Shown in pieces: positions 46,874 to 60,272 of a stretch of DNA of 64,000 nucleotides (positions are counted from its first letter, which is position 1; each line of letters starts with the position of its first letter). A program made the translations under genes and the position numbers. Origin of the DNA: a virus (lineage: Duplodnaviria > Heunggongvirae > Uroviricota > Caudoviricetes); IMG/VR virus record IMGVR_UViG_3300001688_000696; one strand, given 5' to 3'. The notes beneath the pieces were generated by a model. That model had not been told where the DNA came from. It did no database searches and was given only the letters and a program-made list of their open reading frames with translations.

Positions 46874-47371
46874 ATGACGAAAAGAATTATTGGTTTATTA
46901 ATCTTTGTTTTGTTTTTTCTGGCAGGATGCTCGCCCGCTGAAGCTGAAAAGGCTGCCGAACAACCAAAAGCGCCCGAGGCTGAAGTGATGATGGCGACGG
47001 AAAACACGGATTCACCATCTTTGATGATGGTAAATCCAACTCCTACAGAAAATGTGGAAACTGGCGTACTGGTAAGGAAGGTAGAACGAGAAAGCATCGT
47101 CGGACAGCGGACGGCAACATCGGATAATCCTTCGCGCCAAATATTCTTTTTATTGAAAAAGTTCCCGGTAGAAAGTAAAGACCATGTAGAACTTCCGGCG
47201 AACACCCCGATTTACGCTGAACCTGCTGCCGATAGCAACGTAATTTACATTACGCCCACGTCCGCTATCCTTGTATGGGATACCAACAGGATAGAGGGGG
47301 ATGAAAACGGTTCTTTGTGGGTTGGAGTCGTTACCCCGGACGGTCAGAACGGATGGTTGAAGATTGAATAA
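46874..47371 (+). CDS. Lipoprotein with C-terminal SH3-like domain
   Basis: Lipobox FLAG-C; C-terminal WVGVVTPDGQNGWLK. Confidence 0.65.
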   Translation: MTKRIIGLLIFVLFFLAGCSPAEAEKAAEQPKAPEAEVMMATENTDSPSLMMVNPTPTENVETGVLVRKVERESIVGQRTATSDNPSRQIFFLLKKFPVESKDHVELPANTPIYAEPAADSNVIYITPTSAILVWDTNRIEGDENGSLWVGVVTPDGQNGWLKIE

Positions 47372-47409
47372 GCCGTGTCAAATCTAGTTATTTAAATAAG
47401 TTCAAATGC

Positions 47410-47438
47410 TTGCATTTTGAATGCGGTTATAGTATAAT
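47410..47438 (+). promoter_or_regulatory. Sigma-70 promoter upstream of RNase P RNA
   Basis: TTGCAT-N17-TATAAT. Confidence 0.7.
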
Positions 47439-47549
47439 AAGTATAAGACCACCGGAAACGGGAACGGGTAAACATCGAAATCAGAAAGGGGAAAAACAAT
47501 TATCGCCAGATTGAGGCAGAAGAAGCGATGAAAATCGCTCACCTAATTG

Positions 47550-47905
47550 GGTTGGATGACCGGGCGTTCGCTCGACCCCGGTAGCGAGGAGAGAGGAAAT
47601 TCCGCACTTCAAGGGCAGGGTGGTGGTTAACGGCCACCTGTGGTAACACAGAAACAGGGCCACAGAAACAAACCGCCGATGGGGTAGGAGTCTACTCACA
47701 GGCAAGGGTGAAAAGGTGGTGTAAGAGACCACCGGCGACCGCAGTGATGCGGCGGCCAGGCATCCTTCACTCGAAGCAAGGCAAATTGGGGCGAGGTGCT
47801 GCCCGCACCGCTTGAGCCTCTGGTAGCCGCAAAGACCTTCATGGCAACATGAAGGCAAGACAGATGAACGTCTAAAACAGAATGCGGATTACGGGTTGTC
47901 CAACC
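47550..47905 (+). ncRNA. rnpB: Bacterial type A RNase P RNA
   Basis: P1 ggttggatgacc/ggttgtccaacc; GAGGAAATTCCGCA...ACAGAATGCGGATTA P4; P8 UAACG loop; P9 GUAA; agggccacagaaac; gggtgaaaaggtggtgtaagagaccacc; GGU in L15; P18 GCAA hairpin. Confidence 0.95.
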
Positions 47906-47934
47906 AAAAAGCGGCAGATTACCTGTCGCTTTTT
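47906..47934 (+). terminator. Terminator of rnpB
   Basis: aaaaagcggcag-attac-ctgtcgcttttt. Confidence 0.8.
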
Positions 47935-48006
47935 AATTTAATTGCCCAAAGGCGTTGACATTGAGCGATATAACAATTATTTAAAAAGCAATAGCCGGGA
48001 GGAATG

Positions 48007-48183
48007 ATGTCTCTTTTTAGGCTGCATTGGCTGACTGGCGAAACGCAAGTTGTTGAAGGCGATGACATTGCTGATGCGATGAATCAGGTGGGTATTGGGG
48101 CGGGCGCACTGTGCGCTCTGGATTATTATGAGCGAATCGAAGATGAAGATGCCGGGGAGGAAATCTCCGTCACCGAAGAATAG
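48007..48183 (+). CDS. Small phage-type hypothetical protein (58 aa, below ORF-track cutoff)
   Basis: SD GGGAGGA; MSLFRLHWLTGETQVVEGDDIADAMNQVGIGAGALCALDYYE…. Confidence 0.7.
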   Translation: MSLFRLHWLTGETQVVEGDDIADAMNQVGIGAGALCALDYYERIEDEDAGEEISVTEE

Positions 48184-48317
48184 CAAAAATTAGAACCAAA
48201 GCTACAGAGTTACAAAAAATGCCCCCCTACAAACCGGGCATTTTTTGTTTAAATGAAACGAATTCCTCCGTTTTGTCATCCAGCCCGTCATTAGTATACT
48301 AATTATACAAAGAAAAG

Positions 48318-48991: not shown

Positions 48992-49661
48992 TCAGCCGGT
49001 TACGGCGGCAATAAGCTCCCGCAGTTTTCGACAATCCTCGCAATAAGCCCGTTCAAAGTAGCTGTGTATGTTGCTGTCTGGTGCGATAGGGAAGTAGTGT
49101 GCCTGAAACGGCAGCATGAAACTATGGCGCTTCAGGTACTTCTTCGGCATCCCCACTTCTCCATTGACCAGCAACGGTTCATAGTACAGCAGCCCCAGAT
49201 GACTGACCGGACGGTAGCCCAGCGTCTCTGCGATAAAGGCATAAATGGATAGCTGTGCGCGATAGATGGGGTTATCAGAGCGGGCGGATTCGTTGACGTT
49301 GGAAACCTTGTAGTCAATGATGGCATACGTCCGGTCTTCCAGTTCGAACAACGCATCCGGCACGCCGGTCACTCGCAGTCCTGTCCTCGGGTCAATTACA
49401 AAGAACCTTTTCGCGCTGGACACCCGGATTTCATTCCGAATGGGCGGCAGCTCATCCATCCACCGCAAAGGCATTTTTTTCGTGAATTGCGGTTTTAGAC
49501 ACCGACTTTGCCGCCAGGTCTAAGCGGCTGAACACGCTTGGAAAGTAGTTGTAGGGGAGTTTCAGTTTGTTTGTTATCCAGAAACAGCGCGGGCAAAAAG
49601 TCGGCATAGAAAGCTCGGCTATCCTTTTTGCCGATAGGCTGAGATGTTGGCTTTTTTCCAT
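48992..49661 (-). pseudogene. Cas4/RecB-like PD-(D/E)XK nuclease split by a +1 frameshift in an A7 run
   Basis: N-part ...FCPRCFW...IHEK (49452-49661) and C-part MPLRW...TGVPDALF...IIDYK...QLSIYA (48992-49474). Removing one A from the T7 at 49474-49480 fuses them in frame. Confidence 0.7.
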
Positions 49662-57971: not shown

Positions 57972-58043
57972 TCCTCTCTAGCTTAATGGCAGAGCGTCCG
58001 GCTGTTAACCGGGAAGGTGCAGGTTCGAGTCCTGCGGGAGGAG
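57972..58043 (+). tRNA. tRNA-Asn(GTT)
   Basis: Cloverleaf; loop CT-GTT-AA; no encoded CCA. Confidence 0.92.
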
Positions 58044-58048
58044 CTGAT

Positions 58049-58120
58049 GCGGTAATAGGTCAACGGTAGACTGCCTGCTTCCCAAGCAGGAGGTTGCGAG
58101 TTCAAGTCTCGCTTACCGCT
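58049..58120 (+). tRNA. tRNA-Gly(CCC)
   Basis: GCGGTAA/TTACCGC; loop TT-CCC-AA; U73. Confidence 0.92.
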
Positions 58121-58126
58121 TCCGAT

Positions 58127-58197
58127 GCGGGCATAGTTCAACGGTAGAACATCGCCTTGCCATGGCGAAAATACGAGTTCGAGTCTCGTTGTCCGCT
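58127..58197 (+). tRNA. tRNA-Gly(GCC)
   Basis: GCGGGCA/TGTCCGC; loop TT-GCC-AT. Confidence 0.92.
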
Positions 58198-58198
58198 C

Positions 58199-58269
58199 TG
58201 CGGAGTAGAGAAGTGGCATCTCGACGGCCTCATAAGCCGTGAACGCAGGTTCGAGTCCTGCCTCCGCTA
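58199..58269 (+). tRNA. tRNA-Met(CAT), initiator-like
   Basis: 1:72 mismatch (T:T), A11-U24; loop CT-CAT-AA. Confidence 0.88.
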
Positions 58270-58275
58270 CCTGAT

Positions 58276-58349
58276 GCACCCGTGGTGTAGTGGTCTAACA
58301 TGCGGCCCTGTCAAGGCTGAGAACGCCAGTTCAAATCTGGTCGGGTGCG
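58276..58349 (+). tRNA. tRNA-Asp(GTC)
   Basis: GCACCCG/CGGGTGC, G73; loop CT-GTC-AA. Confidence 0.92.
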
Positions 58350-58354
58350 CCTAT

Positions 58355-58425
58355 GGGCGTGTAGTTCAATGGGAGAACGACGCTGTCGCATAGCGTAAAT
58401 CTGGGTTCGACCCCCAGCATGTCCA
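58355..58425 (+). tRNA. tRNA-Ala(CGC)
   Basis: G3.U70 pair; loop GT-CGC-AT. Confidence 0.85.
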
Positions 58426-58640
58426 CTCGCCAAAGTCTACCGCCATAGACAATGGCGACAGGTTTATCATCAAAGTCCGGTGGCGGCCGGGCGGAGAAAA
58501 TTTCCCTGACCGGCGTGAAACCCAATGGCGAGGCGTAGCGCCAGTGAAAAGAACCAAAGTCGTGTGGTGTAAGTTCGTAATAGCACACATCCATAGGGTG
58601 ATGAAGTCCGGTAAGCCGTGACCCCGGCGCGATTTTGGTC
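58426..58640 (+). ncRNA. Unidentified structured RNA candidate in tRNA array
   Basis: Two closed domains (ctcgcca/tggcgag; accaaagtcg/cgattttggt) with internal hairpins. Confidence 0.4.
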
Positions 58641-58667
58641 AATTTTTTAACCAGTAGGGCGTGATTT

Positions 58668-58738
58668 GGTCGGGTCTTTCAACGGCAGGAAACCGTTCTG
58701 ATAAAGCGGTAATGAGTGTTCGACTCACTCCCTGACCA
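58668..58738 (+). tRNA. tRNA-Ile(GAT), divergent
   Basis: GGTCGGG/CCTGACC; loop CT-GAT-AA; weak D-stem. Confidence 0.8.
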
Positions 58739-58745
58739 CTACTAT

Positions 58746-58819
58746 GGACTTTTAGCTCAGCCGGTTAGAGCGCCGCCTTGACATGGCGGGGGTCGTGCGT
58801 TCAAGTCGCACAAAGTCCA
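58746..58819 (+). tRNA. tRNA-Val(GAC)
   Basis: GGACTTT/AAAGTCC; loop TT-GAC-AT. Confidence 0.92.
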
Positions 58820-58824
58820 CTGAT

Positions 58825-58897
58825 GGGCGATTAGTTTAGCAGTCAGAACGCCCGGTTCACATCCGGGAGGTCGCAGGTGCAAATCCTGCATTGCCCA
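58825..58897 (+). tRNA. tRNA-Val(CAC)
   Basis: GGGCGAT/ATTGCCC; loop TT-CAC-AT; T-loop TGCAAAT. Confidence 0.88.
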
Positions 58898-58918
58898 CTC
58901 CGTTTGTTTCGTCGGATA

Positions 58919-58985
58919 GCACAGTTCGTCTAAGTGGTAGGACAGACCCAAGGGTCAGATGCAGGTTCGAATCCTGCACTGTGCG
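58919..58985 (+). ncRNA. tRNA-like RNA lacking an anticodon loop (67 nt)
   Basis: Acceptor GCACAGT/ACTGTGC, D-arm and T-arm GCAGG-TTCGAAT-CCTGC intact; anticodon arm is GACCC-AA-GGGTC. Confidence 0.8.
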
Positions 58986-59107
58986 AACGAAGGCGGCAGA
59001 CGAACAACGGGAAGCCGTCACTTCTCGGTTGGTAATCTGGTAGATAGGCGGAAGGCGGAGGCTTGACGGGGCTGATGCTGACAAATATCTACCGGGTTAT
59101 CATGAAT

Positions 59108-59181
59108 GGGCGGTTAGCTCAGGTGGTTAGAGCGCTGTGCTGATAACGCAGAGGTCGAAGGTTCGAATCCTTCACCGCCCA
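59108..59181 (+). tRNA. tRNA-Ile(GAT)
   Basis: Canonical GGGCGGT/ACCGCCC; loop CT-GAT-AA. Confidence 0.95.
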
Positions 59182-59191
59182 CCTTTGAGAT

Positions 59192-59264
59192 GGGTACATG
59201 GCGTTAATTGGGAACGCACCGCCTTTGCACGGCGGAGTTGTGGGTTCGAGTCCCACTGTATCCA
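59192..59264 (+). tRNA. tRNA-Ala(TGC)
   Basis: G3.U70; loop TT-TGC-AC. Confidence 0.92.
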
Positions 59265-59317
59265 CTATGGACGGTTCTAAAGAATTGTTTTGACTGGTCG
59301 GGTGCTGGTAAAAATTT

Positions 59318-59392
59318 GGGTGCTTAGCTCAGTTGGTCAGAGCGCCTCGTTTACACCGAGGAGGTCGGGGGGTTCGAGACCCTCAGCGCCCA
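59318..59392 (+). tRNA. tRNA-Val(TAC)
   Basis: GGGTGCT/AGCGCCC; loop TT-TAC-AC. Confidence 0.92.
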
Positions 59393-59396
59393 CTCG

Positions 59397-59583
59397 TCCC
59401 TGGCTCATCTCCTTGGCGCGCCGCAAAAAGTTATAAGGAGATATTGCCGCAACAATACACGGCGGATTCGCGATAATGCCGTTGAGGTAGTACGTGGTGA
59501 CACGGAATTGCCAGCAAAACTGGATGGTAGGAAACCAGGGATGAGCTGTGTCGGCGGGATTTCGATAACTATCCCGCCGACAC
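59397..59583 (+). ncRNA. Unidentified multibranch RNA candidate in tRNA array
   Basis: tccctgg/ccaggga closes five hairpins and is followed by a 13-bp hairpin. Confidence 0.4.
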
Positions 59584-59971
59584 GACAATAATCGAAATCG
59601 GTTTTTGAAGGCGGTAATGCGATAAAAAAGAGTTGGAATCAGGTTGGCGAACCGGACTTTTATCGCAATCAGCAAAATTTCCAAATCCTGCTGTCTTTTG
59701 ACCGGCCTTTGCTGACGGGCGCAAGTTTTTGGAACTGCTGGTACAGGAAAGCGCAAACGTAAGTCGCAATCTAATTTTCTTCTTGAACGAAGCCAAATTT
59801 GAGCCGTTCAAACAGGAACAGGTGTCCCTGCGGCAGTTGGTAGCCAACCTATTGGCGGTGAATACTGGTTGGTGAATACGGATGAAAATGGTTTTGCGAG
59901 CTGGTATTGCAAATATTCGCTTTCGCCAGCGGAATTTCCAGAAAAATATTTACTGTCTGAATAACAATTGC

Positions 59972-60042
59972 GCGGGCGTGATGTAACGGTAGCATGACTG
60001 CCCTCCAAGCAGCTCGTGTCGGTTCAAATCCGGCCGTCCGCT
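59972..60042 (+). tRNA. tRNA-Gly(TCC)
   Basis: GCGGGCG/CGTCCGC; loop CC-TCC-AA. Confidence 0.88.
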
Positions 60043-60067
60043 TATTTGGGAACAAACTAAAATCTGA

Positions 60068-60138
60068 AGGGGCGTAGTTTAATGGCAAAATGGCCGTCTC
60101 CAAAATGGCTGTTGGGAGTTCGATTCTCTCCGCCCCTG
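60068..60138 (+). tRNA. tRNA-Trp(CCA)
   Basis: AGGGGCG/CGCCCCT, G73; loop CT-CCA-AA. Confidence 0.92.
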
Positions 60139-60143
60139 TTGAT

Positions 60144-60215
60144 GGGCGCGTAGTTTAATCGGGAAAACGCATCAATGGCATTGATGTGACGCTGGTTCGA
60201 TTCCAGTCGCGTCCA
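60144..60215 (+). tRNA. tRNA-Ala(GGC)
   Basis: G3.U70; loop AT-GGC-AT with the A32-U38 typical of Ala(GGC). Confidence 0.92.
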
Positions 60216-60272
60216 CTTTCCTGTTTGTTTGCTAACCATGTGGAAATGGCAGCGGAGCGGCAGACAGAAATC

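Follow-up and report, generated by a model that had tools for sequence, protein, structure and literature searches.

The window, i.e., the whole 64,000-nucleotide stretch of DNA analyzed in this study, contains a complete gene for the RNA subunit of RNase P (rnpB) of bacterial type A, in which three base pairs of the P4 helix are changed and all three are compensated. The gene is carried by what looks like a giant extrachromosomal element. In our assessment, with a probability of about 0.7, it specifies a functional P RNA of type A that relies on the RnpA protein of the host cell and aids the 5′ maturation of the element's own tRNAs, and the changes in P4 reflect neutral compensatory drift.

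When the whole window was searched with Rfam cmscan, RF00010 (RNaseP_bact_a) was the sole RNase P match, scoring 230.7 bits where the gathering threshold is 100, with an E value of 1.1e-73, and it covered the model from position 1 to 367, i.e., over its full length. The same RF00010 match was repeated in a permissive rescan of positions 47200–48300. A preliminary description, made from the letters of the window alone, had claimed a complete type A rnpB and had proposed the comparison with RNaseP_bact_a; the full-length match and the pairing of all core helices confirm that claim. The interval of 47410–47934 that it had assigned to the ribozyme is wider than the RNA gene itself (Table 1) and corresponds to the presumed transcription unit.

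Table 1. Positions of the rnpB gene of the window, of its parts and neighbors, and of rnpB loci used for comparison (positions of the window unless a locus or accession is given).
Feature	Position	Strand	Basis or remark
Promoter-like site TTGCAT-17 nt-TATAAT	47410..47438	+	Read from sequence; putative
Presumed leader, ~105 nt, between promoter-like site and P1	47446..47551	+	From coordinates
RNase P RNA gene (rnpB), bacterial type A, 356 nt	47552..47907	+	RF00010, full model length
P4 5′ strand AAAUUCCGCA, bulged U at 47601	47597..47606	+	Column-by-column alignment, direct pairing
P6 pseudoknot 5′ strand GGGC	47613..47616	+	Pairs with GCCC 47801-47804 in the P17 loop, 4/4 Watson-Crick
L15 GGU motif, docking site for the tRNA 3′ CCA	47822..47824	+	Aligned to consensus CGGGUA in the Rfam alignment
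J2/4 ACAGAA, conserved	47877-47882	+	Directly 5′ of the P4 3′ strand
P4 3′ strand UGCGGAUU	47883..47890	+	Column-by-column alignment, direct pairing
Intrinsic terminator directly 3′ of P1	47906..47934	+	12-bp stem, 5-nt loop, T run
Array of 15 tRNA genes, likely substrates, 10 kb downstream of rnpB	57972..60216	+	ARAGORN, Rfam
Nine IMG/VR rnpB loci of three sequence families, first part	L053:3492-3855, L091:5657-5988, L083:1002-1492, L071:1111-1452, L096:1571-1912		
Nine IMG/VR rnpB loci of three sequence families, second part	L054:4835-5181, L070:4579-4925, L086:9607-9953, L098:12329-12675		
tRNA-rnpB-tRNA unit of a 162-kb IMG/VR contig	L058:727-1224		rnpB 800-1149; tRNAs 727-800 and 1151-1224
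Seven small IMG/VR contigs with a shared P4 variant	L051, L057, L063, L064, L073, L076, L081		
Five bacterial genomes with the U-A form of P4	L130, L132, L133, L134, L131		Genomes G006-G010
"Plasmid 18" of Tsukamurella tyrosinosolvens NCTC13231	NZ_LR134460.1 142257-156395 (L156)		

Direct pairing showed that P1, P2, P5, P6, P7, P8, P9, P13, P17, and P18 are canonical, and P14 is paired as expected in the Rfam alignment. P13, a peripheral element of type A, lies at positions 47715–47733, P14 at 47735–47756 with a GUGA loop, and P18 at 47836–47855 with a GCAA loop. L9 (GUAA) and L8 (UAACG) both fit the consensus, and the GNRA loops L9, L14, and L18 are thus all present. According to the Rfam alignment, the consensus residues are also kept in J3/4, in J2/4, at the adenosines of J5/15, in the GGU of L15, and in the T-loop recognition module formed by J11/12 and J12/13. 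In its P1–P18 helices, its P4 and P6 pseudoknots, P13/P14, P18, and GNRA loops, the RNA resembles M1 RNA of E. coli and the P RNA of Thermotoga maritima (RF00010), and the bulged U in P4, the sequences of J3/4 and J2/4, and the GGU of L15 are those of bacterial type A P RNAs. The one weakness lies in P3: this helix is short and a poor match to the Rfam model. In addition to this short P3, the gene differs from bacterial type A genes in that it appears to reside on a giant extrachromosomal element, has no rnpA nearby, and forms a long branch without a close relative.

For the analysis of P4, the rnpB of the window and 46 other type A rnpB genes were aligned (47 unique sequences in total), and the helix was compared column by column. 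P4 of the window consists of eight Watson-Crick pairs around the unpaired U47601, of which A47598-U47890, A47599-U47889, and U47600-A47888 precede the bulge, and C47602-G47887, C47603-G47886, G47604-C47885, C47605-G47884, and A47606-U47883 follow it. Because the Rfam model does not score P4 as pairs, this pairing is not an artefact of the alignment. The bulge column is invariantly U across the 47 sequences. Three of the pairs differ from the majority, which is G-C at each of them and in nearly all bacteria. Beside the bulged U (pair 47600-47888), the window has U-A, and the set contains 37 G-C and 9 U-A pairs at this position; the pair 47605-47884 is C-G, which is unique in the set (the others include 39 G-C and 5 A-U); and the pair 47606-47883 is A-U, for which the set contains 39 G-C and 6 A-U. 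All three changes are compensated in Watson-Crick fashion, which accounts for all six substitutions in P4, and the metal-binding bulged U and the A-rich 5′ strand are unaltered. The preliminary description had given the same P4 strands with three changed and compensated pairs, a reading that the 47-sequence alignment upholds, and its suggestion that the gene is under selection rather than decayed is supported by these three compensated changes. The fully co-varied P4 is good evidence of selection, not of new function, and the rnpB of the window as such shows no new chemistry.

All six strain copies of this rnpB are identical, and their flanks are 99.6–99.9% identical. Given that the available copies are all identical, selection cannot be demonstrated by covariation within the family. 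No diverged orthologue of the gene was found, the neighboring orphan gene has no relatives in IMG/VR, and the ORF directly upstream of rnpB has only a 99%-identical cluster of relatives. The identity between the rnpB of the window and the 46 other sequences is at most 64%, and its branch length in the tree is 0.57 vs. a median of 0.11. Among 103 near-invariant columns (i.e., those conserved in at least 93% of the 46 other sequences), only 4 deviate in the window, while deviations are found at 8 and 13 of the same columns in two bacterial rnpB genes, each of which is the sole copy in its genome. Such divergence (~36%) along a long branch, combined with helices that are nevertheless kept, indicates purifying selection on the structure without decay.

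These figures also bear on whether the gene is a non-functional passenger, i.e., an rnpB that was captured together with neighboring DNA, is not used and slowly decays. Its location 10 kb from the tRNA array rather than within it, the P3 that is degenerate relative to the model, and the long branch would all fit a passenger. The retention of all helices at ~36% divergence with changes in 4 of 103 conserved columns is, however, unlike neutral decay, and so are the placement of all six P4 substitutions in three compensated pairs and the possession of a terminator of its own. We therefore regard a passenger as unlikely; the rnpB of the window is real and intact, and it is probably functional.

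The preliminary description had called the canonical P4 strands near-universal. U-A beside the bulge is indeed rare, but the wording is overstated, as the distal pairs vary and U-A is native elsewhere. A total of 185,579 species genomes were scanned with a 20-base degenerate pattern that required U at the position of G68 and left the rest of P4 free, and whose sensitivity was ~55% (31 of the 56 type A genes in a test set were recovered). Twelve contigs were matched, including three of Krumholzibacteriota, three of Fibrobacteraceae, two of Elusimicrobia, one of a Peptostreptococcaceae metagenome-assembled genome (MAG), one of Steroidobacteraceae, which is probably a chance match, and two that were unclassified. 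A scan of the JGI metagenomes with the same pattern yielded 11 further contigs of the same kinds. The matching A is found on the 3′ strand in most of the pattern-matched contigs. Two other searches recovered no rnpB: the exact 15-mer of the variant P4 had 43 matches in IMG/VR, all of them by chance (without the partner strand or the core motifs), and none of the four matches to a second degenerate pattern was an rnpB.

Five bacterial genomes representing four lineages (Krumholzibacteriota, Fibrobacteraceae, Elusimicrobia, and one Peptostreptococcaceae MAG) were searched whole; in each of them, the sole rnpB is of the U-A form, and all five encode RnpA. Because these bacteria have no other form of rnpB, a U-A pair at this site is compatible with, and indeed supports, cellular life. 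In the tree, it occupies at least four separate places: Krumholzibacteriota and Fibrobacteraceae; Elusimicrobia; a Clostridia-like group together with one family from huge viral contigs; and the window. U-A beside the bulged U is thus a rare (roughly one species in ten thousand) but recurrent and viable natural variant. The native genes of Krumholzibacteriota, Fibrobacteraceae, and Elusimicrobia share with the window the replacement of G-C by U-A 5′ of the bulged U, whereas they are chromosomal, have canonical G-C pairs in the distal part of P4, and are 53–73% identical to the RNA of the window, depending on the alignment. Given that these native U-A genes sit elsewhere in the tree, the pair arose independently in the window.

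The two distal pairs of P4 vary by compensation in many lineages, which makes them a case of ordinary variation. Such covariation of distal pairs is of the kind from which P4 was first deduced. The distal part of the window's P4 (CGCA/UGCG) is absent from all pattern-matched contigs of the species genomes, and the exact combination found in the window was detected neither in the 185,579 species genomes, at the pattern's sensitivity of ~55%, nor in the JGI metagenomes or IMG/VR. The preliminary description had allowed that this P4 variant might be the norm in the phylum of the host; the exact variant occurred in 0 of the 185,579 species genomes, as far as a ~55% sensitive scan of the set as a whole reaches. 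The P4 combination of the window is unique in everything searched, yet it is built of ordinary parts.

The preliminary description had also proposed that plasmid and phage databases be searched for rnpB, which was positive for IMG/VR and gave no convincing copies for PLSDB or the phage records of GenBank. With a core motif that is independent of P4, type A rnpB was found on 56 IMG/VR contigs, nine of which are 94–497 kb. Full-length rnpB genes with Rfam scores of 247–288 bits were found at twelve IMG/VR contig loci of 34–497 kb, some of which may be copies of one element, and they lie mostly within dense tRNA arrays. None of the IMG/VR genes is close to that of the window (≤64% identity). The rnpB matches in PLSDB were to chromids or to mislabelled pieces of chromosomes, not to true plasmid copies; for example, "plasmid 18" of T. 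tyrosinosolvens, in which rnpB has an ordinary chromosomal gene context, looks like a mislabelled chromosome fragment. In the phage records of GenBank, rnpB-like DNA was confined to small unannotated contigs of faecal viromes and to mis-filed bacterial contigs.

Compensated P4 variants are found on six of the nine IMG/VR rnpB contigs of at least 94 kb: the 446-kb and 94-kb contigs have U-A and, in addition, a U-G wobble; the 481-kb and 267-kb contigs combine a swap of C-G to G-C with a change of G-C to A-U; and the 279-kb and 129-kb contigs show a swap of C-G to G-C. Nine IMG/VR loci of three sequence families, most of them on contigs of 94–481 kb, have a full-length rnpB inside tRNA arrays with such compensated variants (Table 1). 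The P4 variants of the three families are AAAGUCGGAG/CUCCGCUU, AAAGUCGGGA/UCCCGCUU, and AAAUUCUGGG/CCCGGAUU; in the last of these, the pair that corresponds to E. coli C71 is a U-G wobble. On a 162-kb contig, rnpB abuts a tRNA on either side with spacers of 0–1 nt, and freeing this ribozyme from a tRNA-rnpB-tRNA precursor would require, in part, its own activity. A further compensated P4, AACGUCC.../...GGCGU, is common to seven small IMG/VR contigs; in it, C-G replaces the second A-U pair, and the rnpB of the window groups weakly (support 0.63) with two of these seven.

No 16S rRNA was found in five huge IMG/VR records with rnpB that were searched whole (controls 14/14), nor was any RnpA (controls positive in 10 of 14 genomes); in particular, the 446-, 481-, and 279-kb records, searched whole, contain neither. 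A search for Terminase_6N in the five records gave one sub-threshold match, and their viral label rests on the classification by IMG/VR and the absence of 16S rRNA. The rnpB genes of the 446-, 481-, 279-, 372-, and 497-kb records are similar to that of the window in that they are full-length type A genes on very large, tRNA-rich, non-cellular replicons. They differ in that they lie inside tRNA arrays, whereas the rnpB of the window stands apart as a unit of its own, 10 kb away from the array, and in that the carrier of the window has plasmid-type partition and transfer genes with no virion genes seen in the window.

Many of the 56 IMG/VR contigs are short and end in rnpB, as expected of prophage flanks or integration sites. 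By analogy to these small contigs, the sequence in the window could be a mimic of an integration site, i.e., an attachment site for integration into the rnpB of the host. The gene of the window is, however, a complete one of 356 nt with its terminator rather than a 3′ fragment, its identity of at most 64% to any rnpB seen is too low for it to recombine site-specifically with the gene of a host, and no integrase was found among the neighbors examined. We consider an attachment site to be extremely improbable.

The compensated variants on other large contigs, and the P4 combination of the window with its C-G pair at 47605-47884, which was unique among the 47 sequences and was found in none of the 185,579 species genomes, JGI metagenomes, or IMG/VR, would fit a specialized or insulated RNase P. 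A recoded P4 might in that case alter the use of metals or the choice of substrates; alternatively, it might let the ribozyme evade an agent of the element or the host aimed at the canonical P4, and the ribozyme would then replace rather than supplement the RNase P of the host. In E. coli, substitutions in P4 (e.g., C70U) are known to change the metal preference of the enzyme, which is in favor of this possibility. Against it, all changed pairs are Watson-Crick pairs and the bulged U and the A-rich strand are intact; U-A is the sole cellular form in several lineages and distal compensation is common; and the modules for substrate recognition are at consensus. Likewise, the altered specificity that the preliminary description had raised as a possibility found no evidence, because every module that contacts the substrate (J5/15, L15 GGU, J11/12, and J12/13) matches the consensus, as do L8, L9, L14, and L18. 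We know of no agent that targets the canonical P4. A specialized enzyme is unlikely. Still less probable by a clear step is its most elaborate form, in which the recoded P4 serves as an insulation device: the P RNA of the host would be disabled or outcompeted via the canonical P4 or its surroundings, the ribozyme of the element would escape, and tRNA maturation would become dependent on the element; in a variant of this idea, metal or substrate preferences would be tuned to tightly spaced, CCA-less tRNA precursors.

The genes of the window are consistent with a large plasmid- or phage-like carrier. They include those for RecA, RecX, DnaB, SbcCD, HerA, a class II ribonucleotide reductase (RNR), and dCTP deaminase (dcd); ParA, a sigma factor, a Replic_Relax protein, a VirD4-like ATPase, and several orphan DNA methyltransferases; and an ADP-ribosyltransferase, an ADP-ribosylhydrolase (ART/ARH), and phosphatases, along with PHROG matches and many large orphans, which make up most of the large ORFs. 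Among the annotated ORFs of the 64-kb window, no ribosomal, rRNA, central-metabolism/housekeeping, or virion genes were found. Contigs that encode the RecA of the element number 21; they come from ENA, JGI, and several Logan run series, and the two longest measure 295,894 and 399,701 bp. As a marker of the host, RecA was uninformative, being 53–58% identical to proteins of many phyla. On the strength of the plasmid- and phage-type genes, the lack of housekeeping genes in the window, and the recurrent contigs of 296–400 kb, the carrier has the appearance of a giant extrachromosomal element, as judged from 64 kb of at least 296 kb. The preliminary description had called the ribozyme mobile-element-encoded; the ParA, Replic_Relax, and VirD4-like proteins and a window free of chromosomal hallmarks agree with this, with the qualification that the same 64 kb of at least 296 kb are the basis of the judgment.

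Contigs of up to 400 kb with RecA, RecX, DnaB, RNR, tRNAs, and rnpB could alternatively represent the chromosome of a bacterium with a tiny genome, for which this would be the only and an ordinary rnpB. Such a chromosome is hard to reconcile with large ORFs that are mostly orphans; with ParA, Replic_Relax, the VirD4-like ATPase, the PHROG matches, and the orphan methyltransferases; with the lack of ribosomal, rRNA, or central-metabolism genes among the annotated ORFs of the 64 kb and of rnpA in the window; and with a tRNA array that has redundant isoacceptors. It is a very unlikely explanation. It should be noted that five of six Logan contigs from different runs stop at positions 47730–47736, within the most conserved core of rnpB (P13), which suggests a branch in the assembly graph at 31-mers that are common to another rnpB, possibly that of the host. 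Just downstream of rnpB, a 160-aa ORF (48992–49474, minus strand) has a motif of the D...IDYK type, which suggests a PD-(D/E)XK nuclease.

The preliminary description had assigned to rnpB a promoter and a terminator of its own. The terminator is confirmed (Table 1), while the promoter is putative: the −10 element is perfect, but the −35 element matches at only 3 of 6 positions, and the site was not called by a consensus scanner. No Rfam family was matched in the presumed leader, even at E values of up to 1. The leader contains a small hairpin with a GAAA loop (AGCGAU-GAAA-AUCGCU) at about 47526–47541.

A profile of RnpA (PF00825) was built from five bacterial genomes and gave E values of 1e-32 to 1e-50 for positive controls. 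In a six-frame HMM search of the window, which covers 64 kb of the at least 296 kb of the element, RnpA was not found, and the best E value was 1.3. This bears out the statement of the preliminary description that RnpA is absent from the window. Returning to the reading that we prefer, the P RNA would be transcribed as a separate unit from a plasmid/huge-phage hybrid of at least 296–400 kb that resides in anaerobic digesters and biogas reactors, with a host that is possibly a member of Anaerolineae. It would most likely assemble with the RnpA of this host. The ribozyme may thereby raise or secure the removal of 5′ leaders from the tRNA precursors of the element, i.e., the 15 in the window and those of further arrays elsewhere. 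The three swapped pairs of P4 would be compensatory substitutions that built up as the lineage evolved fast along its long branch, with selection retaining the helix, and they would leave the geometry of the catalytic core and the activity of the enzyme unchanged.

Huge phages and large plasmids are known to bring translation parts of their own, such as tRNA arrays, tmRNA, aminoacyl-tRNA synthetases, and ribosomal proteins (PMC7162821), and the element of the window is similar to them in this respect. In the study by Al-Shayeb et al. (2020; PMC7162821), annotation was confined to tRNAs and tmRNAs, and RNase P RNA is not mentioned. No paper in the literature searched describes a phage, a plasmid, or another extrachromosomal element that encodes an RNase P RNA, and, as far as we found, the context provided by the carrier is noteworthy and unpublished.

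Few ribozymes are universal, and RNase P RNA is among them; the textbook view of its gene is that of a single-copy chromosomal gene. An rnpB without rnpA raises the question of whether one host protein can serve two quite different P RNAs in each cell. In the element-borne rnpB genes, nature moreover offers a series of P4 variants, including U-A beside the bulge, swaps between C-G and G-C, and a U-G wobble, with which the tolerance of the catalytic core can be studied. If copies of rnpB are indeed selectively maintained on giant elements, the enzyme that processes the 5′ ends of tRNAs would join the translation parts that such elements carry.
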